A stretch of DNA of 64,000 bases from Deltaproteobacteria bacterium (GTDB lineage Bacteria; Myxococcota; Kuafuiibacteriia; Kuafuiibacteriales; Kuafuiibacteriaceae), in NCBI GenBank assembly GCA_040218735.1, contig JAVJQW010000067.1, forward strand, positions 128,001-192,000. Reading direction: 5' to 3'. Position numbers and translations under genes: made by a program. Below the pieces are notes generated by a model. It had not been told where the DNA came from. It made no database searches and saw only the letters and a list, made by a program, of their open reading frames with translations. Below are positions 33,995 to 53,613 of the stretch, one piece after another. The number at the start of each line of letters is the position of its first letter. Within the stretch, counting starts at the first letter, position 1.

Positions 33995-33997
33995 AGC

Positions 33998-34471
33998 TCA
34001 GCGCGCGGCCGCGTCGACCTCGACGGTGATCGCGTACTCGGCGATCGCGTCGGAGAAGACTTCGATCAGGTGGTCCCCCTCGAGGAAGACCTGCTTCGAC
34101 TGCTCGAAGACCTGATCGTTCCCCGCCGCGAGGAAGATGTCCGATCCCTCCGACAGGTACTGGTAGGTGTCGAAGCACCCGGGCTCGTGCCAGAGGATCT
34201 CGGTGTCGACGCCGGTCGCAACCTGGGTTGCAAAGAAGATCCGCACCGTGATGACGGCCTCCTCCGGCGCCGGCACGATGAACTGACGTGACCCGGGGAA
34301 GCGGCCCTCCAGGTACTTGTTGCTCCCCATGACACACCCGGCGGTGGTCTGGCAGATCGGGAAGGTGCCGTCGCAGCGGTCCTCGTCCAGACCGAGCGTG
34401 AAGTTGTCCTCGGCGCCGAGACCACACCCCGCGAGGAGCGACAACAGCACGACGGATGGGGCTCGCTTCAT
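33998..34471 (-). CDS. Hypothetical lipoprotein
   Basis: ATG 34471 (ATGA overlap); MKRAPSVVLLSLLAGC lipobox. Confidence 0.75.
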   Translation of the reverse strand: MKRAPSVVLLSLLAGCGLGAEDNFTLGLDEDRCDGTFPICQTTAGCVMGSNKYLEGRFPGSRQFIVPAPEEAVITVRIFFATQVATGVDTEILWHEPGCFDTYQYLSEGSDIFLAAGNDQVFEQSKQVFLEGDHLIEVFSDAIAEYAITVEVDAAAR

Positions 34472-35364: not shown

Positions 35365-35387
35365 AGCGCTGATGATAGCCTTCGCCC

Positions 35388-36038: not shown

Positions 36039-38047
36039 CCGAGATTCGCGCGTTCCTCGCGGCCGTCACGCTCGGGGGGGCCCTGCTCGCCTTCGGCGCG
36101 CCGGTGTCGGCGCAGGAGCCGGACGACGCGCCGGACACCACCCTCGCGATCGACACGGAGAGCCACAAGGAGCAGTACGACCAGGCGGCGCTCAAAGAGG
36201 AGCGCACCAAGCTCAACGCGAAGCTGACCGAGACGCCGGACGATCCGGCGGCGAAGAAGCGGCTCGCGGCGGTGCTGTTCCACCTCGGGGAGACGGACCA
36301 GGCGCTGTCGATGCTCGCGCGGATCGTGTCGTCGAACCCGAAGGACGCCGACTCGCTCTACATGCTCGGCGCGGCGTACGAGCTGCGCGGCGAGCTGGAC
36401 CGCGCGATCTCCACGTACGAGTCCGCGGCCGAGCTCGCGCCCGACAACGCGCTGCTGATGCTCGACCTCGGCCTCGCGTACCGCAAACGCGGCGACCTCG
36501 ACCTCGCGGTCGAGCAGTACACGAAGGCCCACGCACAAGCGCCGGACCTCGCCGTGGCGCTCTTCAACCGCGGCGAAGCCTACGAGCGCCTCGACCGCCG
36601 CGAGGACGCGCTGCGGGACTACCGGGAGGCCGCGAAGATTGACGAGACCTACGCGCGTCCCCACGTCGCGCTCGGGAAGATCTACGCGGACCTCGGGCTC
36701 ATGGACCAGGCGATGCGGAGCCTCGCGCACGCGCTGCGGATCGATCCGCTCGAGCCGGACGCCCACTACGACCTCGGCGTGTTGTACTTCCGCCAGCGTC
36801 GTTACCGCGACGCGGTCGTGGAGTACGAGCTCGCGATCGAGGCCCGCCCGAAGTACGCGAAGGCGCATAACAACCTGGGCGTCGCGTTGGACCGCATCGG
36901 TGAGCGCGAGCGCGCGATCGACGCGTTCAAGCGCGCGACCGAGCTGCGACCGAAGTACGTCGACGCCGCGTTCAACCTCGGGCTCGGTTACTTCCGGCTC
37001 GGTCGCCTCAAGGAGGCGGGCGAGCAGTTCGAGCGCGTGCTCAAGATGAAGCCGGACCTCCCCGAGGCGCAGTTCCACCTCGGCGAGGTCTACTACCAGC
37101 GCGGCCGCTCCCGGAAGGCGCTGCAGCTGTACAAGAAGGCGCTCTACACCCGCCCGCAAGATGGGTTGACGTACCGGCGCATGGCGCGCGCGTACCTCGA
37201 TCAGGGCGAGCCGAAGAAGGCGATCGAGTACCTGGAGAAGCTCGTCGAGCTGACGCCGGACGACGCCACCGCACACGAGCAGCTCGGCCTGGCCTACGCC
37301 GTCCTCGACACCCGCGACGACCTCGCGCGCGCCGCCGAGGAGCTGGAGCAAGCGCGCACCCTGGATCCGGAGTCGGCGCAGATCCTCGTGAGCCTCGCGA
37401 AGGTGCAGTACCAGCAGAAGAAGGGGGATCAGGCGGAGGCGACGTTGAAGGCGGCACTCGAGCTCGACCCCGGGCACCGCACCGCGACGTTGGCGCTCGC
37501 CGACATCTACGAGGCGCTCAAGGACGACGCCAACGCGAAGAAGATCCTCGAACAGGCGCTGGAGCGACGCCCCACGTTCGCGGAGGCCCACTACCGCATC
37601 GCGCTCATCGCGCGCCGCGCGGGCAACACCGAGGAGGAGCGCGCGCACTACAAGAAGGCGCTCGTGCTCAACCCCGCGCACGCGAAGGCGCGCGCGGAGC
37701 TCGGTGCTTCGTACTACGAGGCGAAGGAGTACGAGGAAGCGGGCCAGATGCTTGCGCGTGCGATCGAGAGCGACCCGTCGTTGCCGCGCGCGCACGCGTA
37801 CCTCGCGGCCGCGTACGCCGCACTGGGCCGCGACGCGGACGCGCTCGAGTCGGCGCGGCGCGCGGTGCAGCTCGACGCGAAGAACGCGGGTGCGTTCAAG
37901 GTGCTCGGCGGCATCGAGAAGCGGCTCGGCAACCTCCCTGAAGCGAAGTCGGCCTACGAGAAGGCGTTGGCGCTCGACCCCAAGAACAGCGACTTGGCGT
38001 TCAAGATCAGTGACATCGAGAAGCTGATCGCCGAGAAGTCGCCCTGA
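36026..38047 (+). CDS. Exported multi-TPR protein
   Basis: ATG 36026 with signal peptide; more than 15 consecutive TPR-like units (A..NLG.A......EA...F.RA..L.P). Confidence 0.9.
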   Translation: MARLTEIRAFLAAVTLGGALLAFGAPVSAQEPDDAPDTTLAIDTESHKEQYDQAALKEERTKLNAKLTETPDDPAAKKRLAAVLFHLGETDQALSMLARIVSSNPKDADSLYMLGAAYELRGELDRAISTYESAAELAPDNALLMLDLGLAYRKRGDLDLAVEQYTKAHAQAPDLAVALFNRGEAYERLDRREDALRDYREAAKIDETYARPHVALGKIYADLGLMDQAMRSLAHALRIDPLEPDAHYDLGVLYFRQRRYRDAVVEYELAIEARPKYAKAHNNLGVALDRIGERERAIDAFKRATELRPKYVDAAFNLGLGYFRLGRLKEAGEQFERVLKMKPDLPEAQFHLGEVYYQRGRSRKALQLYKKALYTRPQDGLTYRRMARAYLDQGEPKKAIEYLEKLVELTPDDATAHEQLGLAYAVLDTRDDLARAAEELEQARTLDPESAQILVSLAKVQYQQKKGDQAEATLKAALELDPGHRTATLALADIYEALKDDANAKKILEQALERRPTFAEAHYRIALIARRAGNTEEERAHYKKALVLNPAHAKARAELGASYYEAKEYEEAGQMLARAIESDPSLPRAHAYLAAAYAALGRDADALESARRAVQLDAKNAGAFKVLGGIEKRLGNLPEAKSAYEKALALDPKNSDLAFKISDIEKLIAEKSP

Positions 38048-40126: not shown

Positions 40127-41290
40127 ATGGACGAGATCACGGACTATCCGCGGCTCGCGAGTTTCTGCGACGGCGCGAACCCAGCGGGGATGAGCCGCGA
40201 GCAGATCTACGAAAACTGCGTAGATCTCTGGCAGGCGTTCTACCCGACGACCTCGATCCTGGTCGGACTCGGAATCCTCGCCGCCGTCTCACTGATCTAC
40301 ATGATCATCTTCCGCGTCGCGCGCGGCGACGCGACGGGGACGACGGTCGCGACGTGCTTCGAAGTCATCTTCTACGTCCCGGGCGCGGCCTACGCCGGAG
40401 CGTCGGGTGGGTTGTTGCTCGCCCAGCTCCTCCATCCCTTCGCGGCGGCCAGCCTCATCTTCCTCGCCGTCGCGGTCGCGCTGTTCATCATGGTGAAGGG
40501 TTTGATCGACGCCGCCTCGTCTTCGACCAGCGTCGGCGGCGGGTGGATCTTCCTCGGTATCGTGGAGATCGTCCTGGTCGCCGGAGCCCTGGCGGTCACG
40601 GCGGCCTTCGCGGCGGCGGTGAACGAGACCAACGCGGCCGCTGAGTACGAAACGTACTACCAGTGGATGTATTACACGTTCGGGGGCATCGCGGCGATCC
40701 ACGCGCTGTACATCACGAGTTACCGTTCGTTCCACGCCGGCATCGCGTGGCTACTCATCCCGCTGGGCGCGACTTGGGGGCTCATCGGGACACTCCTCGG
40801 GACGTTCCACCACATCGCTTCGAGCCGCTTCAAACCGAACCACGGACAGCCGGCCCATGGGTTGCGCAGCCTCTATACGAAGTACACCAGTGGGTTCAAT
40901 CTCAAGGGTTCGTTCGGCTTCACGCTGGGTTCGACGATGTTTCCCGGCGGCGTCGAAAAACACGAATCGATTCACGTCCTGCAGCACTTCGTGTTCGGGC
41001 CGAGCTTCGAGCTGACCTACATGCTGTGGGCGATCGTGTTCTTCATCCCCGCGCTGATCGCCTCCCCCATCGTTGGGTACGACGTCGGCAAGGGCATCGA
41101 GGCCTACTGCTACTACAACAACCCCTGGGAGACGATGGCCTACGCCGTCGACGGCGCCGGGAAACCGGTCTCGCGCAAGAAGATGATCTTCAACGATCAC
41201 CTGCGTTGGGCATTGGCGGTCATCTGGTGGCAAGCCGGTGCCATCGGGTTGGTCATCTTCGCACTGTTCCGCGCGAAAGCGTTCGGCTGA
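40127..41290 (+). CDS. Multi-pass membrane protein with HExxH zinc-metallopeptidase-like motif
   Basis: About 8 hydrophobic segments; KHESIHVLQH with downstream YYNNPWETMAY (candidate third-ligand Glu). Confidence 0.75.
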   Translation: MDEITDYPRLASFCDGANPAGMSREQIYENCVDLWQAFYPTTSILVGLGILAAVSLIYMIIFRVARGDATGTTVATCFEVIFYVPGAAYAGASGGLLLAQLLHPFAAASLIFLAVAVALFIMVKGLIDAASSSTSVGGGWIFLGIVEIVLVAGALAVTAAFAAAVNETNAAAEYETYYQWMYYTFGGIAAIHALYITSYRSFHAGIAWLLIPLGATWGLIGTLLGTFHHIASSRFKPNHGQPAHGLRSLYTKYTSGFNLKGSFGFTLGSTMFPGGVEKHESIHVLQHFVFGPSFELTYMLWAIVFFIPALIASPIVGYDVGKGIEAYCYYNNPWETMAYAVDGAGKPVSRKKMIFNDHLRWALAVIWWQAGAIGLVIFALFRAKAFG

Positions 41291-41333: not shown

Positions 41334-42542
41334 ATGACCGCGAAGACCGTCGACGTCACCGTCGTTCCGGAGTCCATCGAAGTCGAAGTCGGATCGGCGC
41401 CCACCAAGGTCGCCTTCTCGGTCACCTACCAACACGACGAGCCGCTCGAGGCCCTCGTGAAGGTGCTCGGGAGTGACGGCTCGGTCGAATCGTGGGTCGA
41501 GCTCGAAGGCGCTCGCGAGCGCACGTTCACCAAGGACAGCACCACGCAAATCCTCGCGAACGTCTCCGTGCCGAGCAGCGCGAGCTCGGGTGAGTACAGC
41601 TTCAAGCTCGCGTTCGTCGGCGTGCGCAACCCAGACGAGGACTACACCGAGTCACCGTCGGTGCGCGTGAAAGCGCGGCAGCCCGCCGAGCGCCCGAGCA
41701 AACCGTTCCCGATCTGGATCCTCGCGCTCGTCGCGGTGCTCGTCATCGTGGTGGGTGTCGTCATCTTCTTCGTCGTGCGCGACACACGCGCCGGCATCCG
41801 CGAGTCCTGCGCCGACGGCGTGCAGTGCGCGGACGGCCTGACCTGCAACGACGAACAGATATGTCTGTTCGCCAACGGCGGGACCTGCGCCGACGGCAAC
41901 GACTGCCTCACCGGCTACTGCGGCGCCGAGGATCACGTCTGCGCCGACGAACCCGGACCGCCCGGCCTCGGCGAGGCGTGTGAATCGGAGTGCGCCGAGG
42001 GCCTCACGTGCGCGGACAAGAAGTGCCTCGGGACGCTCGGCTTCGCCTGCACGGCCAGCGAGGACTGCCACGAGATGGTTTGTGACAACAGCCAGTGCAG
42101 TCGCCTCGGGCAGAAGTGCACCAACGACGCGAGCTGCGGCGAGGCGCGCCTGATGTGCTCGTCACTCGGCACCGAGCGGCGCTGTCTCCTGAAGGAAGGC
42201 CAGCCCTGCCACGAGCTCGGCGCCGCCCTCTGCGACTCCCAACAGTGCAGCGGCGACAAGTGCGTCGCGCCGACGCGGTGCCGCAACAACACCCACTGCG
42301 AGAGCGACGAGAGCTGCGTCTCGGGCTTCTGTTACACGAAGCCGAACATGAGCTGCAGCGGCAACGACGTCTGCCTCCGCTTCATGTGCGTGGAAGGGAA
42401 GTGCCCGACCTATACGTGCACGACGGCCCGCAAGTGCCCGGCGACCTACGGCTGCTCCAACGGTCGCTGCGTCCGCCGCCGCGCGGTCAAGACGGACCTC
42501 CTCGAACGCCTGAAGCTGAAGAACTGGAAGGGCTCGCTCTGA
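41334..42542 (+). CDS. Bitopic membrane protein: N-terminal Ig-like domain, single TM, C-terminal Cys-rich repeat region
   Basis: No signal peptide; beta-rich N-terminal ~115 aa (VSVPSSASSGEYSFKL..V...NPDEDYTESPSV); KPFPIW + TM; many C-x(3-5)-C repeats. Confidence 0.8.
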   Translation: MTAKTVDVTVVPESIEVEVGSAPTKVAFSVTYQHDEPLEALVKVLGSDGSVESWVELEGARERTFTKDSTTQILANVSVPSSASSGEYSFKLAFVGVRNPDEDYTESPSVRVKARQPAERPSKPFPIWILALVAVLVIVVGVVIFFVVRDTRAGIRESCADGVQCADGLTCNDEQICLFANGGTCADGNDCLTGYCGAEDHVCADEPGPPGLGEACESECAEGLTCADKKCLGTLGFACTASEDCHEMVCDNSQCSRLGQKCTNDASCGEARLMCSSLGTERRCLLKEGQPCHELGAALCDSQQCSGDKCVAPTRCRNNTHCESDESCVSGFCYTKPNMSCSGNDVCLRFMCVEGKCPTYTCTTARKCPATYGCSNGRCVRRRAVKTDLLERLKLKNWKGSL

Positions 42543-43342
42543 GCGGCGCGGCCGACCGGCTGCGTACGCCGTTCTACATCGCCGCGCTGGTGATCTTCGC
42601 CTTTGCGTGGCTCCTCGAGAGCGGCTCGGCCGCCGGCCTCTCTGCCTCCCCGCCCCAGGGCGGCGCGCTCTACACCTCACTGAAGGGGAGCGTGCAGAAG
42701 TACGCCGACGACCTCGACGAAGACGAGGTCGAGGAGGAGACGAAGAACGCCATCGCCACGCTCCGCGCCGCGGACCCGCCGCCGGGGTTGGCGATCAGCT
42801 ACCTCGGCGTGTTGGACCTGATGGTCCTCGCGACGATCTTCTTCATGGGCGCGGGGATGCTCTTCCGCTTCCGGTCGTGGGGCCGCGTGCAGGCGCTCGC
42901 GTCGCTGATCCTCGGCGTGTTGGTCCTGCTCGCGGGAATCGCCCTGCTCTTCAAGGCGATCGGGCTGCTATTCCTGATGGTCGGGCTGTTTCTCGCGACG
43001 CCCTTCGGGACCATCGCGTACATCGCGACCTACGGCTTCTTCCCCACCGGCACGGCCAAGGCGATCCTCGGCTCGGCGCTGTTCCTGAAGGTGATCGCGG
43101 GCGTCTGCCTCGTGCTCGCGCAGCAGCGGATGTTGAAGGCAAAGGCCCTCGTCGCGATCATCCTCTCGTCGCTGCTGGGTTCGGTCATCATCAGCTTCTT
43201 ACACGGCATCGTGCCGGGCTTCCTCGTGAGCATCACGGACGCGATCGCGGCGATCGTCGTCATCATCATCGCGCTGATCTGGGCGGTCCTCCTGATCGTC
43301 TTTGCGATCATCGGACTGGTGAAGGGCCTCTCTAGGGATTGA
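42539..43342 (+). CDS. Multi-pass membrane protein (6-7 TM), CIS-locus associated
   Basis: Hydrophobic C-terminal part of ORF 42095..43342 (PPGLAISYL, PFGTIAY, SFLHGIVPGFLVSITDAIAAIV). Proposed start is CTG at 42539 overlapping the upstream TGA; the alternative is GTG at about 42588. Confidence 0.75.
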   Translation: MSGAADRLRTPFYIAALVIFAFAWLLESGSAAGLSASPPQGGALYTSLKGSVQKYADDLDEDEVEEETKNAIATLRAADPPPGLAISYLGVLDLMVLATIFFMGAGMLFRFRSWGRVQALASLILGVLVLLAGIALLFKAIGLLFLMVGLFLATPFGTIAYIATYGFFPTGTAKAILGSALFLKVIAGVCLVLAQQRMLKAKALVAIILSSLLGSVIISFLHGIVPGFLVSITDAIAAIVVIIIALIWAVLLIVFAIIGLVKGLSRD

Positions 43343-43724
43343 TGCGGATCTGGCAGGTGCCCGCCGGCGGCTTCAGCGTGAGCGTCGCCCCGGCCTCGGA
43401 CACGTAGACGTCCTTCGGTTTGGCGTCGAGCCGCACATCGTACGCGGTGCTCCCGTCGCTCGGTGCGAATCGGACGCGCTTCTTCTTGCAGGCCTTGTTG
43501 CCCACGAGCGTCGCGCGCGCGTAGCCGTCGCCCTTGGCGATGCGGCACACGGTCACCAGCGGATCACACCCGGAGCCGAGGCGACCTTCGTCGACGGGCG
43601 ACGACATCAGCGCCAGCAGGCGATCGCGCATCGCGGTCTCGTCGTCGTCGTCCGTGGGCCACGCCATGCCCACCACGAACAGCGCGACGAGCAGTACGAC
43701 CACCCCGAGCAGGACCCACTTCAC
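43332..43724 (-). CDS. Small membrane-anchored/exported protein, last gene of the CIS operon
   Basis: N-terminal hydrophobic helix MKWVLLGVVVLLVALFVVGMAW, 4 Cys; GTGA overlap with the tail gene. Confidence 0.7.
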   Translation of the reverse strand: MKWVLLGVVVLLVALFVVGMAWPTDDDDETAMRDRLLALMSSPVDEGRLGSGCDPLVTVCRIAKGDGYARATLVGNKACKKKRVRFAPSDGSTAYDVRLDAKPKDVYVSEAGATLTLKPPAGTCQIRINP

Positions 43725-44203
43725 CGTTCGACCTCCACGACCTCGAACGTAGCGTACGCCGGCTTCTCGCGCGCGACGATGCGACGCACGCGCTCGACCT
43801 GTCCCGCCGCGGCGGTCGGCACCTCGACGACCAGGTGGAACGGCTGGTCCTCAGGCTCACGGACCACGAAGCCGCGGACGTCGGTCGCGACTTCGAGGTG
43901 CTGGACCAACGCCCACGCGGTGCCGCGGTAGCGCGACAACACCGCGGCGCGCGCGACGAGCGCACGGGTGGCCGCGGTGGACACACCGTCGTTCGGATCC
44001 ACGCCGACCCAGTACGCCAGCATGCGAACGAGGTCTTCGTCGGCGCGCTGCGGATCGAAGGCTTCGTCGAGGCGGTCGAGGGTCTCGACGGTCGGCGTGT
44101 GCATCGCGGACATCACGCCGACGAGGGTGTCGAGCGGGTCGTCACGCGAGGCTGCGCGACGAATGACGTCCGGCAGCAGCCGAAAGATCTCAGTCGGCGT
44201 CAT
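43721..44203 (-). CDS. CIS baseplate wedge / phage tail protein (P2 gpI / Tail_P2_I-like)
   Basis: FDPQRA..D.V..LA.WVG, YRGT...L...LE, VRRIV.REKPA motifs; follows baseplate J. Confidence 0.85.
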   Translation of the reverse strand: MTPTEIFRLLPDVIRRAASRDDPLDTLVGVMSAMHTPTVETLDRLDEAFDPQRADEDLVRMLAYWVGVDPNDGVSTAATRALVARAAVLSRYRGTAWALVQHLEVATDVRGFVVREPEDQPFHLVVEVPTAAAGQVERVRRIVAREKPAYATFEVVEVER

Positions 44204-46775
44204 CGCGGCTCACCACGTCGATCTGATGTTCACCCGAGCAGAACAGCCACGTCGGCGGGAGGTGCACGATGTCAGCGTCCTCCAGGCTCGACGTCCACAC
44301 GAACGAGGTCCCCTCGTCGCGGCTTCGGTACACCCCGCGCTGCGCGCCCGCGAGGATCGTGCGACCACCCGCGGCCACCGCGTAGATCGGCTCGAAGAGG
44401 CGGTCCGCCGTCTCGAGCGCCAGCCCCGACTCCAGGCTCGGCGACTGCCACGCGACGTCGCGCCGACGTGCGTTCAGGCGGAGCACGCCGCCGCGGTACG
44501 TCCCGGCGACGACGGTCGCGGTCTCGGCGTCCTCACCGAGGAACGCGAGGGAGAGGCAGCTCCCGCCCGTCCACCCCGCGCCGAAGTGCACCCACCCCTC
44601 GGGGGCCATGCCTTCGCCGGTGAGCTCCCAGGCGTAGCAGCCCTCGCCGTCGTCGCGGCGACCGTGCGCGGCGAGGCCCGCCCACAGGAACGAGCGAGGA
44701 CCGTCGCGCTGGACGGCGAGCACCCGCACGTCCTTGTTCGCGAGGCCGATGTTGGTGAACGTCCCGGGGCGACCGGCGCGCACCGAGAGCAGCACGCCGC
44801 CAAGCTCGGTGCTCGCGACCGCGACCTTCACGTCCCCGCGGGTGTCCGTCACGCTCGAGACGGCCCAGAAGCCGGCGTCCGGTTGGCCCTCGACGACGAG
44901 CACCTGCAGCGGGACGGCGTCGCGCTCGGTGGTCACCTCGTACAGGCCCTCGTCGGTCGCGATGAGGAGCACCGGATCCCCGCCGCGCAGCGTCCACGCG
45001 AGATCGTTGGCGCGCGGCATCACCTGTCGTGATTCGCTGAACGTCTCACCCGCGTCGTGCGAGAAGCGAATCGTCGTCTGCTCGCCCTCGCGTACGCCGA
45101 CCGCGAGGAGGCCCGGCACCGTCTCGTGCCGAACGACGTGTTCGATCTTGGCGCCCTCGACGCGCTGGACGACCTCCCAGCTCGACGCGTCGTTCATCGT
45201 CCGGAACAGCGACACCCCGTCCGCCGCGAACCAAGTCCGCGGTTGCGCGGGATCACGCTCCACGACCTCCGTGTGCACCGGCGCCTCGTCGATCGCGAAC
45301 CGCACGTTGTCGACGTAGCTGACGCCCGGCTCCGCCAACACGATGCGCCACACGTGCGCGAGTCGGAGCGGCTCTCCGAACGCCCAGCCCGAGCCCTCAC
45401 CGTACGGGAGCGGGTTGATCGTCTCGTGCAGGCGCTGCGTCACACGGCGCTGCAGCGCGACGAGATCTTCGCCCGGGTGCGCGACCACGCGGGCCTGCAC
45501 CGCGACGCGTTTGTGCGGGGCCCACTTCACGTCGACGTGCGTCGCGAGCGGGCGGCGTGCGTCGAGCGCTTGTTTCACACGCACCCGGAGCTCTTCGCTC
45601 TGCTCCGCGAGCAGCGCGTCGTGGGTGACGGCCGACGGCGGCTGCGGCGGATCGCGTTCCTCGAGGTCCGGGACGAGCAAGACCTCCACCGTCCCCGCGC
45701 GGGCGTGTCGCCAGACCTCCGCGGCGGTCATCGCCTTGGCCCGCCGGATGTCGCGTGAGGTGCGGCGGACGATCGTCTCGAAGTCACCCGCCGTCACGGC
45801 GCGGTCGAGCGACCGCAGCTCGAGGGGGCCTCGCAGCAACGCGTTCTCGACGGGCTCACGCGTCCGTCCGCCGCGCGCGCGGGTTCGGTTGGTGACCTTC
45901 ACCGCAGCACCGCCGGGGAGCGGGTCCAGGAGGTCCGTCAGGACCCCCTCGGTCACGTTGCCGTCCGAGCCTCCGCCTCTCCAGTACCAGGCGCGTATCT
46001 CGCGCTCGAGCGGCGGGACGGCGGCGACGGGGTCTTCGCGGATCGCACCGTCCGCGGCGCGGCGCCCGACCGCCGGGGCGAACGTGACAAGGCCCGAGGC
46101 GCGGTCGAGGAGGAAGACGCGGTCCGTCGGTTCGACGTTCGCGAACGACCCCACCTCTCGGTAGAGCAGGAACGCCTTGTCGGAGAACTCACGCGCCGGG
46201 GCGCCGTCGAGGATCTCGGAGGGATCCGTCTCGACGCCGATGACGAACGGGAGCGCGTCGCTGCGTCCGACGATCGCGTCGTCGGCCACGCGCACCGCCT
46301 GGCCGGCTCGCCCCGTCCCCATCCCGACGAGGCGCCCGACCTCGTAGCTCGCGTGGTACGCGACGACATCGACGGCCAGCTCCCCCGCGGCGATGCGCGC
46401 GTCCTTCGCGACGGTGAAGATCAGCGGCTCTCCGCTCGATCCCCCCTCGGCCGTGATGCGTGTGCCGAGCGGAATGTCGACGGGGGTCTCCTGGGCGGCT
46501 TCGAGCGTGAAACGAACGAGCGTGTGCGCGGGCGTCGCGGCCCACCGCTGCACGCCGATGAGGTTGAGGAGCGCGACGTAGACCTTCTCGGGGATGCGGT
46601 TGAGTCGGTAGAGCGTCGTCTCCGTGAGGTGCGCGAACACCTCGACGAGGATCATCCCCGGGTCGTGCACCGAGAGGTCGGTCCACTCCGGGCAGCGCCG
46701 TTGAATCAGCGCGCGCGCCTCGCGGACGAGCTGCTCGAAGTCCCGGTCGTCGAGGTTGGGGGACGGGAGCGCCAT
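44190..46775 (-). CDS. CIS baseplate J-like assembly protein (Afp11/Pvc11-like) with inserted beta-propeller
   Basis: MALPSPNLDDRDFEQLV..A...I..RCPEWTD.S.HDPG..LVE.FA; GGG..GNV; RAVTAGDFE; INPL....GWAFG; terminal LFCSGEHQI. ATG at 46775. Confidence 0.92.
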   Translation of the reverse strand: MALPSPNLDDRDFEQLVREARALIQRRCPEWTDLSVHDPGMILVEVFAHLTETTLYRLNRIPEKVYVALLNLIGVQRWAATPAHTLVRFTLEAAQETPVDIPLGTRITAEGGSSGEPLIFTVAKDARIAAGELAVDVVAYHASYEVGRLVGMGTGRAGQAVRVADDAIVGRSDALPFVIGVETDPSEILDGAPAREFSDKAFLLYREVGSFANVEPTDRVFLLDRASGLVTFAPAVGRRAADGAIREDPVAAVPPLEREIRAWYWRGGGSDGNVTEGVLTDLLDPLPGGAAVKVTNRTRARGGRTREPVENALLRGPLELRSLDRAVTAGDFETIVRRTSRDIRRAKAMTAAEVWRHARAGTVEVLLVPDLEERDPPQPPSAVTHDALLAEQSEELRVRVKQALDARRPLATHVDVKWAPHKRVAVQARVVAHPGEDLVALQRRVTQRLHETINPLPYGEGSGWAFGEPLRLAHVWRIVLAEPGVSYVDNVRFAIDEAPVHTEVVERDPAQPRTWFAADGVSLFRTMNDASSWEVVQRVEGAKIEHVVRHETVPGLLAVGVREGEQTTIRFSHDAGETFSESRQVMPRANDLAWTLRGGDPVLLIATDEGLYEVTTERDAVPLQVLVVEGQPDAGFWAVSSVTDTRGDVKVAVASTELGGVLLSVRAGRPGTFTNIGLANKDVRVLAVQRDGPRSFLWAGLAAHGRRDDGEGCYAWELTGEGMAPEGWVHFGAGWTGGSCLSLAFLGEDAETATVVAGTYRGGVLRLNARRRDVAWQSPSLESGLALETADRLFEPIYAVAAGGRTILAGAQRGVYRSRDEGTSFVWTSSLEDADIVHLPPTWLFCSGEHQIDVVSRDDAD

Positions 46776-47233
46776 CAGCGTCGTTCTCCGAATAGAGCGA
46801 GCGTGTACATGAGCGTGTCGGTCTCCTGCGTGGGGCGGACGCGGTAGTCGAGGATGACGTGGAGCTCGCCGAGATCCTCCTGCGCGCCGCCGGCGTTCGT
46901 GGCGAGCGGGTCGGAGCGCGTCGCGTCGAGGCGGAGGATCTCCACCCGCGGCTCCCACCGCGTGATCGCCTCGCGCACGTAGTGCATCGCGAGCCCGGCG
47001 GTCGTGTCGTCGTTCGGCGCGTAGACGAGGCGCGACAAGTAGCAGCCGTAATGGGGTCGCATGACGCGCTCGCCGGGGAGCGTAGTGAGGAGGATCAGAA
47101 GGGCCTGGCGCACCGAGGCCTTGTCATCGACGAAGCGCAGCCGCCCGGTGCGATCCGCCGACAGCCCCATCTCCTGACGGCCCCGTGCGAAGTCGGGGTG
47201 CACGAGCTCGAGCGCGCGGAAGCGACGTTTCAT
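46775..47233 (-). CDS. GPW/gp25 family baseplate protein (Afp9-like)
   Basis: SVRQAL.ILL.T.PGERVMRP.YGC.L; AITRWEPRVEI. ATG 47233 with ATGA overlap. Confidence 0.92.
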   Translation of the reverse strand: MKRRFRALELVHPDFARGRQEMGLSADRTGRLRFVDDKASVRQALLILLTTLPGERVMRPHYGCYLSRLVYAPNDDTTAGLAMHYVREAITRWEPRVEILRLDATRSDPLATNAGGAQEDLGELHVILDYRVRPTQETDTLMYTLALFGERR

Positions 47234-47565
47234 GCGTCCGACCCCACGAAGTTCTGGCCGGGTGCCTCGACGAGGTACTCGGCCGGGAACAGGGTGCCGT
47301 CGGTGGAGCCGCGTAGGTTGTCGAGCACGATCGGCCGGCCGTCGATACGCACGAACGCGGAGTATCCGCGGCGCGCGACCAGGGTGAGCGTGCACGGTTT
47401 GTTCGGGGTCGCGACGGGGCAGCGCGAGATCGGGCGCTGCTCCGGGTCGGACCGTACGAGGACGCTGCGCCCCTCGATCGTCACCCAAGATTGGTGCGGA
47501 TCGATCCCCACCTCCCCGGTCGCGTGGGTGCAACGAATCGTGGCGTCTTCGGTGATGACCTTCAT
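47230..47565 (-). CDS. PAAR-like spike tip protein
   Basis: 111 aa between VgrG-like and gp25 genes; CTH..G, V.IEGR.VL, CP..PC, VRIDGRPIVL pattern. Confidence 0.72.
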   Translation of the reverse strand: MKVITEDATIRCTHATGEVGIDPHQSWVTIEGRSVLVRSDPEQRPISRCPVATPNKPCTLTLVARRGYSAFVRIDGRPIVLDNLRGSTDGTLFPAEYLVEAPGQNFVGSDA

Positions 47566-47567
47566 GC

Positions 47568-49010
47568 TCAGCCTTGCTCGAAGTCGATCGCGTCCGCGAG
47601 CAGCACCATGCGGCGGCCCGGTGCGGCAATGCGGAGGTCGGTGGAGGAGTGGAGGAGCGTTTCGTCCTCGTTCATCTCGAGGTGCGTACCGCGACCGTCG
47701 TCCACGCGGACGACGCCGCGGTCTGCGTCGAGCTCGACGACCTGCCCCGCGTGCGTCGTCCACGCGTAGCGGTGGTTCTTGCCGCCGGAGGTCCCGGAGG
47801 ACGGCGCTTCGTTTCGACCGTAGAGGCCGCCGAGCACCACCGCGTTGGCGAGGTCACCGCGCGGCGCGAGGATGAGCACGACATCCTCCTCGTCGGGCAT
47901 CGTAACGAACCCCTTGCGCGCGCCGCCGCCCGGCAGACAAACCGGGAGCCACGGCGTCTGGACGTCGGCGGTCGCGGTGAGGCGCACGCGCACCCGGCGG
48001 CGCGCCTCGGGATCTTCGACGTCACAGACGACGCCGCTGGCGAGGGTCGTCGCGCGGTCGAGCTCGAAGGTCGGAGGCGGGCTCGAGTCGATCTCGGTGA
48101 CGAAGCCGAGGTGATGATCGACCCGGTGGACGACCGCGGTCATCACGAAGGTCTCGTCGTCCCCGACCCCTTCGACGTCGACGGCGTCGCCGGGTACGAG
48201 CTCTGGATCACCTTCGACCACGGCCTTCAACACCCGCGCGCCGAGACGCGAACGCGCTCGTGCCGCGACCGCCATCGCGCGGACCTCGCCCTCCGCGCGG
48301 GCGAGGCCGTCGACGTGGTGCTGTGTGCCCTCCGGGAGCGTGGTGTCCCGCGCCGAAGCGTGGTGCGCGGAGGCGTCGTCGAGCGACGCGCCCCAGGCGA
48401 CGTGCTCCCCGAAGACCTCGTGGACGTTCGTCTCGACCGACGCTTCCAGGAGGTTGTCACCCGCCCGCAAGGTGGCTTGCACGATGTGTTCGTCGAGGTC
48501 GATGAGCTCGACCTCCCGACCGTCGGCCCGCAGGTAACGGCCGACGCGCGCGGCCTCGTGTACGAGGAGGGTCAGATCGTCGACGTCGTGCTGGACGATC
48601 GACGCGCGCACCGGCGCGCGGCCCGAAGTCGCGAGGGTGCAGCCGGCGGCCGACAGGAGCCCCTCGGCGAGACGGAACAGATCCGTCTCGGTAAACAGGC
48701 GCACCGGGCGGTGACGGCGGAGGCGGTGCAGGCGGTCGTACGCGCGCACCACGAAGCGGCGTTGTCCACCGGGGCCGAGCTCGACGCGAGTCGCGGTGAC
48801 TTCGCCGACGAAGAGCGACGCCGCGTGCCCTTCGACGCGCACCTCGACGGGGCCGGCGGTCACCGAGGGGAGCGGTGCGTGCGGCGCGATCGCGTAGGTC
48901 AGCTCGAGCTGCGCCGGAACGGAGAGCGCGCGCCGCACGTAGACGTCGACCAGGGCGCCGTCGATGTCGAGGTCGACGGTGACCTTCGGAATCACGCGCG
49001 AGGTCGTCAC
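47568..49010 (-). CDS. VgrG-like spike / phage baseplate assembly protein V (Afp8-like)
   Basis: gp27-like hub region (RAYDRLHRL; Q...DDL.LL...A), OB-fold GVV.DVEDPE...RVRV, W.P....GG....G....P....VL, VVLGGLY. GTG at 49010. Confidence 0.9.
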   Translation of the reverse strand: MTTSRVIPKVTVDLDIDGALVDVYVRRALSVPAQLELTYAIAPHAPLPSVTAGPVEVRVEGHAASLFVGEVTATRVELGPGGQRRFVVRAYDRLHRLRRHRPVRLFTETDLFRLAEGLLSAAGCTLATSGRAPVRASIVQHDVDDLTLLVHEAARVGRYLRADGREVELIDLDEHIVQATLRAGDNLLEASVETNVHEVFGEHVAWGASLDDASAHHASARDTTLPEGTQHHVDGLARAEGEVRAMAVAARARSRLGARVLKAVVEGDPELVPGDAVDVEGVGDDETFVMTAVVHRVDHHLGFVTEIDSSPPPTFELDRATTLASGVVCDVEDPEARRRVRVRLTATADVQTPWLPVCLPGGGARKGFVTMPDEEDVVLILAPRGDLANAVVLGGLYGRNEAPSSGTSGGKNHRYAWTTHAGQVVELDADRGVVRVDDGRGTHLEMNEDETLLHSSTDLRIAAPGRRMVLLADAIDFEQG

Positions 49011-49729
49011 GACTCGGACTCCCGAATCTCTTCGGCCGGCGGGACGACGATCTGGTAGCCCGCCTCCAGCGCGCCGGGATCGTCGAGGTCGTTGAGCGTC
49101 GCGAGGACGCGCCACCAGGACGGGTCACCGTAGTAGCGCGCGGCGATCTCGTCGAGGCGCTCGCCGGAGCCGTCGCCGGCGTCCTGGATCTCGTGGATGC
49201 GGACTTCACTCGAGGTGAGCGCCTCGGTGGAGGGGTTCGCTGGCGGTCGCGGCGTCGGTGCCTCGACGAGCTGCGGGACGTCGCGGACGAAGCGCATCGT
49301 CACCCACGACCGCGTCGGCACGCCCTCCGGGGTGAAGCGCTCCAGCCGCTCTGCGATCTCGACGATCACCCCCGGCACGTTCCACGCCTTGCCCCACACG
49401 AAGCGAACGAGCGGCGGTCGCCCGCGGCCCTGCTCGATGTCGATGTTCTCCGTGAGCGCCCACAGCGGCGCGGTGAGCGCGCGGACGTCCGGGCTGTCGA
49501 CGTTCGAACCTTCGATGCCGACGTCGAAGAGCAGCTCGAGGCGCAGCTCGGTGACGCCGCCGCCGGTGAAAAGGAGCGGGTCGTCGTTGCCGTCGGGGCG
49601 CGTGAGGTCGCCGCCGATCGAAGCGCGCTGCTTCACGCCCGCCCGGCGCCGGAACTCGACGGAGCTCGGGTTGAGGAGGCACGCGATGCGCCGATCGTTC
49701 TTGTCGATCAGGAAGCTCACCCGCTCCAT
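49007..49729 (-). CDS. CIS tube-initiator protein with C-terminal LysM-like domain (Afp7/Pvc7-like)
   Basis: CLLNPSS, LELLFD, PPLVRFVWG, ERF..EG.P.R; LysM-like GERLDEIAARYYGDPSWWR.LA..N.LDDP. Confidence 0.88.
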   Translation of the reverse strand: MERVSFLIDKNDRRIACLLNPSSVEFRRRAGVKQRASIGGDLTRPDGNDDPLLFTGGGVTELRLELLFDVGIEGSNVDSPDVRALTAPLWALTENIDIEQGRGRPPLVRFVWGKAWNVPGVIVEIAERLERFTPEGVPTRSWVTMRFVRDVPQLVEAPTPRPPANPSTEALTSSEVRIHEIQDAGDGSGERLDEIAARYYGDPSWWRVLATLNDLDDPGALEAGYQIVVPPAEEIRESES

Positions 49730-51222
49730 GCGCGGCCCTCCTGTTCACGGCGTCGCGCGGCGTCGGTGGTGCGGGCCTCGAGCCGGGTGAGCGCGGCGTC
49801 GGGCTCGGGCGGGGCTTCGCGCAACGGGAGCCAGCCGTCGTTTGTGTCGTCACGCGCGCCCTCGGAGGGGAGCGCCGGCCACGGGGAGGCGGCGCCGCTG
49901 AGGTCGAGGGGCGCGTAGGACGGTCGGTCGGCGGACGGAGGCCCGTGGTCTTTCGGGTGGCGCGAAGCGTCGGACTGCGGCGTTGCGTCCGAGCCCGAAG
50001 CGTCGGCCCACGGGGCGCGGGCGACCGCGGTCGTCTTCACGCGCCGCGCCGACGCCTGGGACGCGGACGTCCCCGCTGCGTCGCGTTCGTCCGATCGCGG
50101 CTGGTCTCGTTCCCGCAGATATCGCGCCCGCTGGTCTCGTGCCCGCTGGTCTCGTCCGAGTCCGTCGCGTTCACGCCGTGCCGTCTCGGCGACCCGCGGA
50201 GATGTCACGCCGTCGTCGGCTCCGGGCCGGACGCGAGCGCCGAAGTCTCCGCGCGCGCTGCCGATCGGCTTCGCGTCGTCATCGCCGACAACCCGAGCGA
50301 GCGCCTCGTTCCGTGGCGGGCCCTCGATCGAGTCGCCGCGCGCGACGGGACGAGCCGTCGGACGCGACGCCAACGGCCCGTCGTCCGCAGCCACCGTGTC
50401 GCGCGACTCGGCCGGGGGAGCTTCGGTCGCCGGCGCGCCCGATTCAGCTCCACCGAGGGGCGACGCGTCGGTCCGGCGTTCTCGCCGCGCGCTCGGCGCG
50501 ATGGCCTCACCCGTCGGCGCGCCGCGGATGGGAGCTCGTGGTTCGGGGGCCACCTCGTCAGCGCGTGACGCCGCGCCCGAGCCCGGCGCGCGGCGCGGAA
50601 AACCGCGCAGCTCCGCCGGTGCGCCACCCGAACGGGCGTCGCCAAGGCCACCCCCGATGCCGACCCGTTCGGCACGCGACCCACGAGCCTTCACTTGTCC
50701 CGAGGTGACGCGGCCCGCCGCACCCGCGTCCTGCGGACCGTCCACCGCTGCGGACGTCCCAGGCCGCGCTTCGCCGCTCCCACGGCGCGATGCACCGCGC
50801 TCGCCGACGCGCGGAGCCTTCACACCACGGTCCGACACCAGCGGGTCTTCGGGTTCGAGCCCCCGCGCGACGCCCAGCACCAGCGCGACGGCCCGCGCCA
50901 ACACGCCGTCCGACGCGATGTTCGGCGCGAGGTCCGCGATGCGTTGCGCAACGCCGTCGGGCCCGTCGTCGGGCGCCGCTTCGACCCCGTCCGGCGCCGC
51001 CGGCATCCACTCCGTCGGGTCGAGCCCCGCCCGTTCGATCCGCGCGAGCCAATCCGCGGGCGGACCGGTCCGCGCCGCGACGTGCGCCGCCCAGTCCTCG
51101 GGCGTCGCGGGTCGCGGTGGCGGTGGGGGCGGCGCGGGTTCGCGGACGGCGCGCTCGGCGAGATCCGCCGTGCGGCGCGCGGCGCGCGCAACCCAACGCA
51201 GGGCTCGATCGCGACGGCTCAT
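49717..51222 (-). CDS. Low-complexity Pro/Ala/Arg-rich protein in the CIS operon (tape-measure position)
   Basis: ATGA-coupled to the tube gene and overlapping the next gene by 13 nt; ordered-looking ends (PPADWLARI; PWPALP...RREQEGRAW) flank a disordered core. Confidence 0.6.
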   Translation of the reverse strand: MSRRDRALRWVARAARRTADLAERAVREPAPPPPPPRPATPEDWAAHVAARTGPPADWLARIERAGLDPTEWMPAAPDGVEAAPDDGPDGVAQRIADLAPNIASDGVLARAVALVLGVARGLEPEDPLVSDRGVKAPRVGERGASRRGSGEARPGTSAAVDGPQDAGAAGRVTSGQVKARGSRAERVGIGGGLGDARSGGAPAELRGFPRRAPGSGAASRADEVAPEPRAPIRGAPTGEAIAPSARRERRTDASPLGGAESGAPATEAPPAESRDTVAADDGPLASRPTARPVARGDSIEGPPRNEALARVVGDDDAKPIGSARGDFGARVRPGADDGVTSPRVAETARRERDGLGRDQRARDQRARYLRERDQPRSDERDAAGTSASQASARRVKTTAVARAPWADASGSDATPQSDASRHPKDHGPPSADRPSYAPLDLSGAASPWPALPSEGARDDTNDGWLPLREAPPEPDAALTRLEARTTDAARRREQEGRAWSG

Positions 51223-51725
51223 CCGCGCACGAGTCGGTCACACACCAACGTGATCGATTCGATCGCGAGCTCGCTGCCGGTCGCGTCGAGCGGCGTCCCG
51301 CGCCACTCACGCGGCCACGCCGCGATCAGATCCCAGCGCATCACTTCGCCGGTGCCCGCCGTGTCGAGCAACACGATCGACACGTTGCGCTGGTACTCCG
51401 CCTTCGGTTTGCCGCTGACGACGTCCTGCAGCCAGGTCCACAGCGCCTGGTCGTCGGTCAGGCCGTACCGCAGCGTGACGTCGGAGTACGAGACCTGCCC
51501 CGCGAGGCGCGTGACGTCGGTCGTCCCGCCCTCCCGGAACTCGATCGCCTCCACGCTCACGCCGAGCCCCGCGCACTGGGTGAAGTGCCCGAGGACCTGC
51601 GTCGACTCCTGCTGCGTCAGCTTGAAGTTGTACGCGCGATAAGGATCGACCCAGGCGCCGGTGCCCCCGTCCTGTCCTTCTTCCGCGTTGCCTTCGGTGT
51701 TCGCTTCGTCGGCTCCACTGCTCAT
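51219..51725 (-). CDS. CIS inner tube protein (T4 gp19 family, Afp1/5-like)
   Basis: DPYRAYNFKL, F.QC.GL......EFREGG, YSDVTLRYG, W.W, R...SIVLLD, W....AWP..W.G..LDA...E.AIESITL. Confidence 0.95.
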   Translation of the reverse strand: MSSGADEANTEGNAEEGQDGGTGAWVDPYRAYNFKLTQQESTQVLGHFTQCAGLGVSVEAIEFREGGTTDVTRLAGQVSYSDVTLRYGLTDDQALWTWLQDVVSGKPKAEYQRNVSIVLLDTAGTGEVMRWDLIAAWPREWRGTPLDATGSELAIESITLVCDRLVRG

Positions 51726-51737: not shown

Positions 51738-52934
51738 TTACCCCTCGCCGCCCGCGTCTTCGACCTCGGCGCCCGCCGCGGTCTGACCGATCCGGAAGAT
51801 GATGAACTCTGCCGGCTTCACCGGCGCCAGGCCGATCACCGTTACGACCTGCCCCGCGTCGATCACCTCGGGCGGGTTCGTCTCCTCGTCGCACTGCACG
51901 AAGAACGCTTGCTCCGGCGTCGCCCCGCGCAGCGCACCGTCGCGCCACAGCCGCATCAAGAACGCGGTAACGTCGCGGCGGATGCTCTTCCACAGCGACT
52001 GGTCGTTCGGCTCGAAGACCACCCACCGCGTGCTCTCGGCGATCGACTCTTCGATCATGTTGAAGAGGCGCCGCACGTTGATGTAGCGCCACTCACTCGC
52101 CGCCGGCGCGAGCGTCCGGCCGCCCCACACGCGAATGCCCTCGCGCGTGAAGAACCGAATGCAGTTCACGCCGTTGTCGTTGAGGATGCCCTGCTCTTCG
52201 CGCGACACGCGGTACGACAGCGACAACGCACCGCGTACGCCCTCGTTCGCCGGCGCCTTGTGCACGCCGCGCTCGCCGTCGCTGCGCGCGTAGATGCCGG
52301 CGACGTGACCGGACGGCGGCGTGAACACCACCTGCCGCGTCGTCGCGAGCGGGTCCCGCACGCCGACCCACGGGAAGTAGAACGCGCCGAAGCCCCGGTC
52401 GGAGTTGCGCGGTCGCAGGCCCCCCGCGGGCACAATCTCCGCGTCGTCGTCCGCCGGCGGAGCGCCTTCCGTGGCGACCTCGGTGAGCGCCCGCAGGTCC
52501 GGCACGTCGAGCGGCGCGTCGAGGATCGCCACACGATCCTCCAGGCGCTCGCAGTGCCCGAGGAGCGATTCGTAGGCCGCCGCCCCGGTCGCGCCCGGCG
52601 CCGCGACGATCGCGATCTCGTCGATCCGACCGAGCGCTTCGAGGCCGGCGTCGAGCCGATCGATCGCCCCGACGTTCACCACGTACAGGTTCTTGCCGCC
52701 GTTGAGGAAGAAGCCCCAGACCGCGCGCGACAGGTCCGTCCCGGTGCTCGACTCGGAGCAGAACAGCCGCTTGAAGTGCTGCCAGTTGTTGACGCGCACC
52801 GCTTCGTCCAAGCGGCGCCGCGGCTCGGGGGCCACGCCGACGAAGCCGGCGGTGCTCGTCCCGACCGCGACGATCGGACGTGAGCCGCCGGAGATCTCTT
52901 CGACGTAGACGCCGGGGGTCGAGTAGTTCAGCAC
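51738..52934 (-). CDS. CIS contractile sheath protein (Afp2/3/4-like)
   Basis: YSTPGVYVEE, FFLNGG, R.AILD.P, YFPW, PPSGHVAGIYARSD..RGVHKAPANE, WGGRTL, YINVRRL, W.VFEPND, APVKPAEFIIFRI. Confidence 0.97.
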   Translation of the reverse strand: MLNYSTPGVYVEEISGGSRPIVAVGTSTAGFVGVAPEPRRRLDEAVRVNNWQHFKRLFCSESSTGTDLSRAVWGFFLNGGKNLYVVNVGAIDRLDAGLEALGRIDEIAIVAAPGATGAAAYESLLGHCERLEDRVAILDAPLDVPDLRALTEVATEGAPPADDDAEIVPAGGLRPRNSDRGFGAFYFPWVGVRDPLATTRQVVFTPPSGHVAGIYARSDGERGVHKAPANEGVRGALSLSYRVSREEQGILNDNGVNCIRFFTREGIRVWGGRTLAPAASEWRYINVRRLFNMIEESIAESTRWVVFEPNDQSLWKSIRRDVTAFLMRLWRDGALRGATPEQAFFVQCDEETNPPEVIDAGQVVTVIGLAPVKPAEFIIFRIGQTAAGAEVEDAGGEG

Positions 52935-52935: not shown

Positions 52936-53613
52936 TCATTCCTCCAGTTCGAACTGCACCCGCACCGGCTCGCGGCCGTCTGCGGGGGTCAAGGCGAGCT
53001 TCTGCGTGCGGCCCTTCGCCGTCACGACCAGCTCGAAGGATTGGTCGGCGGGCACCGCGTCGAAGCGGAACCGCCCTCTCGGATCGGCGCGGGCCGTCAG
53101 GTTCAGCGTCGGGATCGACGCGACCGCCCCGGCCAGCGGAATCGACTCGGGCCCCTGCACGACGCCGCGCAACACTCGCGTCGTCGTCAACGCGACGCGC
53201 AGCGGCGTGCGCACGAGCTTCGCCGGGTGAATCGCGCGCGCCTTCGTCGCGAGGAGCGACAGGCTGAACGCGGGACGCGGACGACAGCCGAACGCCGACC
53301 ACTGATCGAGCGCGATCGGATCGTAGTCGATCGTCGCGTCTTCGTGATCGAGCGCGGCCTCCAACACCTGCGACAGCAGCTCGTGCGCGCGGCGGGTCTG
53401 CTCCGCCCAGGTCGTCACGAGGTACCGGCCCCTAAACGCGACCGGCGGGCGGTTCGGGCCCCGCATCGGCTTCTGCTCGTCGAACCCGAGCAGCGCGAGC
53501 GAGACGCCCTCCCCGGCCAGGTCGTCCGACGGGGCGTCGAGCGTCACGGCGACATTGCCGCGCACGACCTCCTGCACCCACGCGACGATCTGGTCGTCGA
53601 GCTCGACGATCAT
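52936..53613 (-). CDS. Pvc16/Afp16 (DUF4255)-like cap protein with C-terminal carboxypeptidase-regulatory-like domain
   Basis: ATG 53613 (ATGA overlap); LD..I..W...., VSL.LL, RYLVTTWA, W.AFG..PRP; C-terminal LRGVVQGP...PLAGA...D.RGRFRF; directly upstream of the sheath. Confidence 0.78.
   Translation of the reverse strand: MIVELDDQIVAWVQEVVRGNVAVTLDAPSDDLAGEGVSLALLGFDEQKPMRGPNRPPVAFRGRYLVTTWAEQTRRAHELLSQVLEAALDHEDATIDYDPIALDQWSAFGCRPRPAFSLSLLATKARAIHPAKLVRTPLRVALTTTRVLRGVVQGPESIPLAGAVASIPTLNLTARADPRGRFRFDAVPADQSFELVVTAKGRTQKLALTPADGREPVRVQFELEE

Follow-up and report, generated by a model that had tools for sequence, protein, structure and literature searches.

The 64,000-nucleotide stretch analysed here (the window; positions 128,001 to 192,000 of contig JAVJQW010000067.1, assembly GCA_040218735.1, from a deltaproteobacterium placed in the Kuafuiibacteriaceae, Myxococcota) encodes a contractile injection system (CIS) whose baseplate J subunit carries a seven-bladed beta-propeller. 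Comparison with plain, propeller-less baseplates confirmed that the propeller is a true insertion at about residues 497-832, within the C-terminal domain, in place of a stretch of 13-46 residues. Propeller baseplates travel with a set of membrane genes, and the product of one of them, the bitopic Ig-TM protein (an immunoglobulin-like, Ig, domain followed by a transmembrane helix, TM), is the predicted partner of the propeller. The reading that we favour, with a probability of roughly 0.6, is that the propeller docks a fibre-less cytoplasmic CIS on Ig-TM in the producer's own membrane.

A propeller inserted in the baseplate J subunit

The gene and its parts lie on the minus strand:

44190..46775, minus strand: baseplate J, a Cis11/Afp11 homologue of 861 aa (TIGR02243, PF04865, 9GTP)
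44280..45287, minus strand: inserted seven-bladed beta-propeller, residues ~497-832 (AlphaFold2 model, structure comparison, alignment)
44214..44279, minus strand: resumed baseplate C-terminal strands (LPPTWLFCSGEHQIDV), which align with the ends of plain baseplates

The protein is built of a core bundle, a trifurcation region and the C-terminal domain that holds the propeller. It reaches 208.2 bits against TIGR02243 (cut-off 155.8), its first ~495 residues being a baseplate J of that type, and the closest solved structure is Cis11 of Streptomyces coelicolor (9GTP, E 3e-61), which is also ranked first by Foldseek. A first-pass annotation of the window had placed a propeller inside this subunit at 44285..45290 and quoted six motifs. 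All of them fall within the single open reading frame 46775-44190(-), which starts with MALPSPNLDD: EPGV...DEAP at residues 482-499, FRTMNDASSWE at 524-534, FSHDAGETFSE at 571-581, LLIATDEGLY at 603-612, ILAG...GTSF at 807-825 and LPPTW...QIDV at 839-854. An AlphaFold2 model built from a 110-sequence alignment (mean pLDDT 91.1, pTM 0.74) shows, between residues 504 and 826, strands grouped into seven blade-like units, in which DSSP finds four strands of three or more residues in each of blades 1-5 and three in each of blades 6-7; Asp-box-like loops occur in blades 1, 2, 4 and 7. Structure comparison by VIA-align gave Z 27.6 to the GH74 protein 6p2l (rmsd 3.1, 307 residues aligned) and, tied with it, Z 27.4 to the WD40 protein 3ow8 (rmsd 2.8, 281 aligned). 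The predicted propeller was borne out by the model and by these scores, and the limits first given for it agree with 44280-45287 from our alignment.

Since WD40 propellers score like those of GH74, the fold tells no function. By sequence, the solved structures that the insert matches best are of the BNR/GH74 type (6p2k, E 3e-8; 3b7f, E 5e-7), and none of Pfam, NCBIfam and PHROGs names it, the only hits being sub-threshold matches to BNR, Sortilin and F510_1955. The insert shares with GH74 xyloglucanases and BNR/Asp-box propellers the seven-bladed fold, the Asp-box loops and Z of about 27, and it differs in being one propeller, not two: the GH74 xyloglucanase consists of two tandem seven-bladed propellers, consistent with the 685-770 residues of the matched targets. 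The catalytic Asp of GH74 lies in blade 1, presumably at positions 518-521 of baseplate J; these positions are mostly G/S/G, with Asp in at most 17 of 110 sequences.

The stretch between anchors common to both types measures 331-351 residues in all 14 propeller-type proteins and 13-46 in all 11 plain relatives, and the end-to-end alignment with ordinary baseplates that the first-pass annotation had named as refuting its reading was not seen. The terminal "hydrophobic-P...S-x-x-H-x-V/I" end can be aligned in propeller-type and plain baseplates, weakly in Rhodococcus. Because the same anchors flank either the propeller or the short stretch, and the terminal strands align again afterwards, the propeller is an insertion, as had been proposed; a tail fusion is ruled out by the usual baseplate end that resumes beyond it. 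The insertion is not recent either, since the G+C content at third codon positions is nearly the same in the core (0.91) and the insert (0.92) and the family is conserved. A further difference went unremarked in the first-pass annotation: the wing domain (150-255 residues, between residues ~125 and ~150) is missing in 14 of 14 propeller-type proteins and present in 11 of 11 plain ones, the mid-protein site measuring 26-27 residues in the former against 175-282 in the latter.

One clade and the membrane genes that travel with it

A search with baseplate residues 495-861 returned 364 homologues among 8,000 candidates. Among the 120 matches listed, identity was 41-52% apart from one near-copy, most proteins had 850-875 aa, and the names were those of Terriglobia, Myxococcota, Anaerolineae, Chloroflexota, Actinobacteria and one cyanobacterium; genome and plasmid searches found the propeller type also in Thioalkalivibrio, Dankookia, Deinococcus sp. 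AJ005, Paracoccus sp. MC1862 and Rhodovulum. Propeller-type homologues span Myxococcota, Acidobacteriota, Chloroflexota, Actinomycetota, Deinococcus and Rhodovulum, and the baseplate of the D. grandis CIS has no propeller. In a tree of the baseplate core alone, rooted at the midpoint only and holding 14 propeller-type and 11 plain proteins (L002 and L007, whose baseplate genes are frameshifted, were left out, as were L021 and L026), the propeller type forms a single clade (100/100) with the phyla intermixed. A single clade that mixes phyla points to one origin of the propeller type, followed by horizontal spread. Over the 110 top matches, mean pairwise identity reaches 58% for the core against 51% for the propeller, in a set chosen by propeller similarity, which inflates the apparent conservation of the propeller; at face value this seems unlike a fast-changing receptor domain. 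No phage record out of 50,697 matched the insert, so a recent origin from phage receptor-binding proteins has no support.

The membrane genes of the window are the following; the last three stand on the opposite strand and face the CIS cluster.

43332..43724, minus strand: sTM, a small protein of 130 aa with an N-terminal membrane anchor (one hydrophobic helix)
42539..43342, plus strand: polytopic membrane protein of ~260 aa (start uncertain) with a CDF/ZnT-like fold (fold model, structure comparison)
41334..42542, plus strand: bitopic Ig-TM protein, 402 aa (homologue scans, topology, complex prediction)
40127..41290, plus strand: polytopic HExxH protein, accessory (homologues in 5/12 propeller loci)

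Profile scans covered the window and 27 fetched loci, of which 12 propeller loci and 12 plain-baseplate loci were counted; kept out were L008 (partial J match only), L009 and L010 (contigs ending before the insert) and L027 (no baseplate). Ig-TM was found in 12 of 12 propeller loci (9 used for its profile, 3 held out), the CDF-like protein in all 10 with enough flank (the two remaining contigs stop within Ig-TM), sTM homologues in 9 of 12 and the HExxH protein in 5 of 12, all five used for its profile; each of the four was absent from the 12 plain-baseplate loci. The first-pass annotation had asked whether propeller baseplates co-occur with membrane genes, and for Ig-TM this holds in 12/12 loci against 0/12. 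Conversely, profile scans for the CisA C-terminus, the Afp15 ATPase and the CIS13 fibre N-terminus gave 0/12 each in propeller loci, and 4/12, 6/12 and 4/12 in plain loci when the loci that built the profiles are included. The CisA profile consists of two sequences, and 2 of the 4 plain loci that it found were held out; the Afp15 profile was built from 4 of its 6 matching plain loci and scanned within loci, some with short flanks. Homologues of the HExxH protein occur in L005, L006, L007 and L014, with a second HExxH membrane gene in L006 (14916-15779, minus strand); a membrane protease acting on the CIS is one possible role for it.

In a survey of 72,556 plasmid records, 58 had some baseplate match, and 10 of the 53 without a full-length match were inspected. 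The propeller occurs in 5 records and the CDF-like protein in those 5 and one more, a syntenic plasmid of R. sulfidophilum in which the CIS core is no longer present. In L027 (AP014802.1, plasmid of R. sulfidophilum DSM 2351, 14500-18700) the CIS core is lost, and sTM and polytopic-gene remnants remain beside an Rhs/VgrG-like gene and a toxin-antitoxin pair, which makes it a natural comparison strain for DSM 1374. L021 has tssI and PAAR genes just upstream of an intact cluster.

Ig-TM consists of an Ig-like domain (residues 1-122), a TM helix (129-147) and Cys-rich repeats. Its Ig-domain profile matched 1,478 clusters (50% identity) at E<=1e-10, and among the best 150 proteins of this family the helix follows straight behind the Ig domain in 148, the other 2 being too short; none of the 150 has an N-terminal signal, and positive charge around the helix is higher on the N-terminal side in 86 of 148 and equal in 30. 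Because of this arrangement, the lack of a signal and the lean of the charge, the Ig domain is probably cytoplasmic and the Cys-rich repeats external. The outer part varies: PASTA in 46 of 120, and also lectin, peptidoglycan-binding, Ig, PAN, PD40 and Cys-rich modules. No solved structure was found for the Ig domain by sequence, the matches falling on PASTA and TM parts; Atlas leads were Ig/NEW3-like at 0.83-0.90. In a Streptomyces CIS-cluster "hydrolase" (L022, 1-1510, minus strand), one or more Ig-like domains at the N-terminus are followed by a TM helix and a tail that varies. Its likeness to the Ig domain is weak (pairwise E 2e-4) and serves as a lead only; it is possibly a membrane partner that has been overlooked in Streptomyces.

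The CDF-like protein was modelled with pLDDT 93 and compares with SLC30A10 at Z 16.2 (rmsd 2.4, 171 aligned) and with ZnT3 at Z 14.6. Foldseek gave E 0.1 or worse, Pfam no match and Atlas nothing at 0.9 or above, and we take the modelled resemblance to the CDF/ZnT membrane domain as a lead only. Three acids within the membrane are conserved (E20 in 111, D86 in 116 and D227 in 118 of 118). The family is unnamed, counts 272 matches, lacks the cytoplasmic C-terminal domain and is confined to propeller-type CISs among the loci examined.

Proposed docking at the producer's membrane and competing explanations

Complex prediction was run with baseplate residues 420-861 and Ig-TM residues 1-122, together with three controls. 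The propeller-Ig pair scored 0.83 (runs 0.82-0.85) and the controls 0.00, 0.53 and 0.00; the score mark is reached by 116 of 157 solved complexes and by 2 of 215 mismatched pairs. The runs agree in at least 96% of contacts, with partner pLDDT of at least 87, and place the contact on one face of the propeller:

44493..44810, minus strand: predicted Ig-binding patch, top-face loops of blades 4-6 (complex prediction; the face assigned from blade topology)

The predicted patch comprises residues 656-658, 682, 702-706, 708, 738-739 and 760-761, met by loop 93-104 of the Ig domain. At its centre the Ig side presents the conserved N-P-D-E loop (P100 in 120, D101 in 107 and E102 in 99 of 120 sequences) and the propeller side D682 (106/110), G738 (109/110), S739 (101/110) and H/Y/F760 (108/110). 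The prediction supports binding of the propeller to the Ig domain, and a recall of some similar known complex is unlikely because no solved relative of the Ig domain was found by sequence. The earlier suggestion that the propeller is a membrane-binding module gains from this indirectly: what the propeller is predicted to bind is a cytoplasmic domain, the Ig domain of a membrane protein encoded alongside it.

The favoured mechanism would then be the following. In this fibre-less CIS, of subtype IId of the extracellular contractile injection systems (eCIS), baseplate J no longer has a wing and bears the seven-bladed propeller in its C-terminal domain, which in related systems makes up the ring, or iris, between the wedges. 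The particle would assemble in the cytoplasm, with 12 propellers if its wedge contains 2 J and 1 I as in S. coelicolor. From their place on the iris, the propellers would attach to the cytoplasmic Ig domain, which would fix the needle at the producer's cytoplasmic membrane; the variable outer domains of Ig-TM (PASTA, lectin, Cys-rich) would sense cell wall or contact, docking or a pull on the iris ring may license firing through the membrane, and sTM and the CDF-like protein would complete the membrane complex. That the outer domains read a wall or contact signal which licenses firing is less probable than the docking itself, and the needle may be aimed at the own cell or at a neighbour, both being possible. 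Known systems offer precedents for these steps. In diffocin and pyocin, neighbouring wedges are joined into the iris by the C-terminal domains of the two J-type subunits, and the iris shifts or breaks upon firing, according to the accessible text of PMC11329794. In S. coelicolor the wedge is made of 2 Cis11 and 1 Cis12 without fibres, and firing requires CisA, a bitopic protein whose gene lies downstream of those for the baseplate and whose predicted partner is Cis11 (PMC12237407, accessible text).

Several points weigh against docking by the propeller. Related IId particles floated free in the cytoplasm (as stated in the accessible part of PMC12998442). The patch is on average no better conserved than the rest of the propeller (0.61 against 0.62; on the Ig side 0.62 against 0.56), one unrelated control docked with 38 confident contacts at its score of 0.53, the calibration of the complex score is only rough for the alignments used here, and the Ig domain was the one candidate partner run beside the controls. 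The Ig family is large (1,478 clusters), its genomic context being known for 12 loci only. Finally, because the propeller type is one clade, its co-occurrence with the membrane genes reflects one origin inherited as a cassette, not a series of independent events or repeated co-evolution.

The CIS might instead be released from the cell, with the propeller replacing fibres as a target-cell receptor binder, for example a GH74-like glycan binder, and the membrane genes serving release, regulation or immunity. The BNR/GH74-type sequence matches, a fold list headed by GH74 (if tied with WD40), a cluster without a fibre gene match and the beta-propeller lectins known on eCIS fibres (PMC12923769, accessible text) are all consistent with such a role. 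However, conservation across phyla is almost as high in the propeller as in the core (51% against 58%, although the set inflates this), the variable adhesin-like domains are located on Ig-TM, the top face of the propeller is predicted to be occupied by the Ig domain, and none of the 50,697 phages matches the propeller. We consider this explanation unlikely, and the first two of these points also weaken the receptor-binding role that had been suggested from the letters.

Alternatively, the propellers could have a purely structural task, stiffening the baseplate ring or covering the spike as substitutes for the wing, and bind nothing outside the particle. It would fit that gain of the propeller accompanies loss of the wing (14/14 against 11/11 proteins) and that conservation is even over top and bottom loops (0.61 each); three co-travelling membrane genes and a complex score above the controls would be left unexplained, which makes this explanation quite improbable. 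A baseplate-peripheral cage, as once proposed, has no support in the known sense: the AlgoCIS cage is formed by extra Alg11 domains round the spike (as described in the accessible text of PMC13314943), whereas here the mid-protein domain is lost and the propeller lies in the C-terminal domain. Less probable than either the released particle or the structural brace is that the propeller-Ig contact serves as a safety lock or a tether for storage, by which an unfired particle is kept at the membrane pending a releasing signal: the same co-occurrence and predicted contact, an insert within the domain that moves on firing (PMC11329794, accessible text) and a HExxH protein (5/12 loci) that might cut the tether would suit it, yet S. 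coelicolor particles stay unfired without CisA, so that partner promotes firing (PMC12237407, accessible text).

Docking on Ig-TM could be part of a membrane-anchored mode of CIS not described before, in monoderms and diderms alike, working without TssJLM, ClpV and fibres: propellers would plug into a three-protein membrane complex, recognition would have moved from fibres to swappable outer domains of a transmembrane receptor, and signals from the wall or from contact, perhaps gated by an ion sensor of CDF type, would fire the needle outward at a neighbour. We regard this full scheme as doubtful.

The CIS cluster among known systems

The minus-strand cluster runs in the order cap, sheath, tube, low-complexity protein, Cis7, VgrG, tip protein, gp25, baseplate J, Tail_P2_I and sTM, and its remaining genes are:

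52936..53613, minus strand: cap (Pvc16-like) with a C-terminal carboxypeptidase-regulatory-like domain (weak PF14065 and PF13620, both below cut-off)
51738..52934, minus strand: short sheath protein, 398 aa (PF04984, PF17482)
51219..51725, minus strand: single inner-tube gene (PF06841, TIGR02241)
49717..51222, minus strand: largely low-complexity protein of 501 aa with conserved ends, tape-measure or cargo candidate
49007..49729, minus strand: tube initiator Cis7/Afp7 (PF19266)
47568..49010, minus strand: VgrG-like spike (Afp8) in one open reading frame (PF04717, PF05954; NF033848 below cut-off)
47230..47565, minus strand: small Cys-containing spike-tip protein at the PAAR position (position and conservation in related loci; putative PAAR-like role)
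46775..47230, minus strand: gp25 sheath initiator, Afp9 (PF04965)
43721..44203, minus strand: short Tail_P2_I/Cis12 wedge subunit, 160 aa, without fibre extension (PF09684, TIGR02242)

Propeller loci are unusually minimal, with one tube gene, a short sheath of 384-411 aa, a Tail_P2_I of about 165-190 aa and no match to the Afp15 ATPase. The low-complexity protein (300-500 aa, between tube and Cis7) has the same conserved ends in nine loci with this layout, a basic amphipathic start with a PPxxW motif and WPxLP...RxxxEQxG at the end; the spike-tip protein had no Pfam or PHROG match. That the cluster lacks a tail-fibre gene, as had been claimed, agrees with our searches of Pfam, NCBIfam and PHROGs and with a two-sequence CIS13-N profile, none of which gave a match. 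By classical type VI secretion system (T6SS) criteria, TssJ/L/M, TssK and ClpV had no matches among the cluster or membrane genes, and neither an outer-membrane component nor a toxin was identified in the cluster. A sigma-70 promoter scan gave 0 sites, and the 9 terminator-like sites (4.9 +/- 2.2 in shuffles) are uninformative. Directly upstream of the cap gene, 53610-54791 (minus strand) encodes a secreted protein of 393 aa with a weak MYXO-CTERM tail, which had no Pfam match and no match in 12 genome-contig loci and which by motif we take to be NlpC/P60-like. That weak tail match, together with a neighbouring protein whose 99%-identical counterpart is labelled Deltaproteobacteria, suggests a myxobacterial host. 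At 20918-38047 (plus strand) lies a series of genes with FHA, TPR and kinase domains (Pfam), together with one for an ECF-like sigma factor, which presumably resembles myxobacterial gliding-motility and signalling clusters.

Among the closest known systems is the CIS of S. coelicolor (CIS-Sc), which shares the single J gene, the short Tail_P2_I, the lack of fibres and a bitopic membrane gene just downstream whose product has a cytoplasmic N-terminus. It differs in a Cis11 of 652 aa with no propeller, and with a mid-protein domain, ~135-150 residues long, that is missing in the propeller type. The cytoplasmic part of CisA is unstructured and its external domain conserved, whereas Ig-TM has a conserved cytoplasmic Ig domain and varies outside; Streptomycetaceae loci have two or three tube genes and a 511-535-aa sheath against one tube gene and 384-411 aa; and the propeller type, unlike CIS-Sc, occurs in diderms too. 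By analogy, the propeller CIS may work like CIS-Sc with CisA, yet it stands outside that family, with no CisA, wing or Afp15 in the locus.

A single afp11 and a single contiguous afp8 are shared with eCIS subtype IId as defined in the accessible text of PMC6899500, which mentions neither propeller nor membrane module; there, dbeCIS lists two homologous Rhodovulum plasmid loci, A0092 and A0095, as IId. The Rhodovulum members of the 100/100 propeller clade are these IId-listed loci, a grouping taken from the dbeCIS listing. The propeller type differs in being a well-supported clade of its own and in afp15, an AAA+ ATPase gene (0/12 propeller loci against 6/12 plain ones). The haloarchaeal membrane-anchored CIS/T6SS (PMC11566945) and the Anabaena tCIS (PMC8894136) are, by their accessible texts, eCIS-type systems anchored from inside to the producer's membrane; haloarchaeal anchoring correlates with a conserved polytopic membrane gene (PMC11566945). 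Unlike the propeller CIS, both anchor via cage, Cis12 and the fibre-like Cis13, and the Anabaena Cis11 (7b5h) is no more than a remote match by sequence profile (E 8e-7). AlgoCIS, as presented in the accessible text of PMC13314943, likewise has extra J-subunit domains (Alg11) involved in triggering; its cage lies around the spike, includes CBM-like domains and cooperates with tail fibres, whereas the propeller is grafted in the C-terminal domain. eCIStem also holds a Lysobacter eCIS that has a PASTA gene; with a 770-aa afp11, a long tail I and afp15 it is laid out differently and does not belong to the propeller type. The 701-aa Tail_P2_I/CIS12 of Paenibacillus (L011, 8515-10620, plus strand) shows weak sub-cut-off BamB/PQQ propeller matches near its N-terminus, and propellers may have been added independently to this other wedge subunit.

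The propeller type appears to be a new form of IId CIS, and we did not find membrane anchoring by a baseplate propeller described. The word "propeller" occurs 0 times in the accessible main texts of PMC12998442, PMC8213781, PMC11566945 and PMC8894136, and a published account of a CIS baseplate propeller or of its membrane gene set was not found, although a supplementary Afp11 tree or figure may show the clade. The accessible text of the fibre catalogue (PMC12923769) has propellers on fibres only and sets fibre-less loci aside. This minimal CIS of 13-14 genes, spread over at least seven phyla, falls among the loci set aside, and the variable outer domains suggest that its targeting variability is located on the membrane protein. 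The clade addresses the question of how fibre-less cytoplasmic CISs reach the membrane and fire at it. In Streptomyces the CisA-Cis11 contact is only predicted, and it involves a disordered region that was not amenable to testing (PMC12237407, accessible text). Since the propeller clade offers two folded soluble domains, a predicted interface at residue level and carriers that are cultured and non-pathogenic, namely Rhodovulum sulfidophilum DSM 1374 (plasmid genes A6W98_RS19450 and RS19440), Deinococcus sp. AJ005 and Paracoccus sp. MC1862, the question of membrane docking becomes directly testable.

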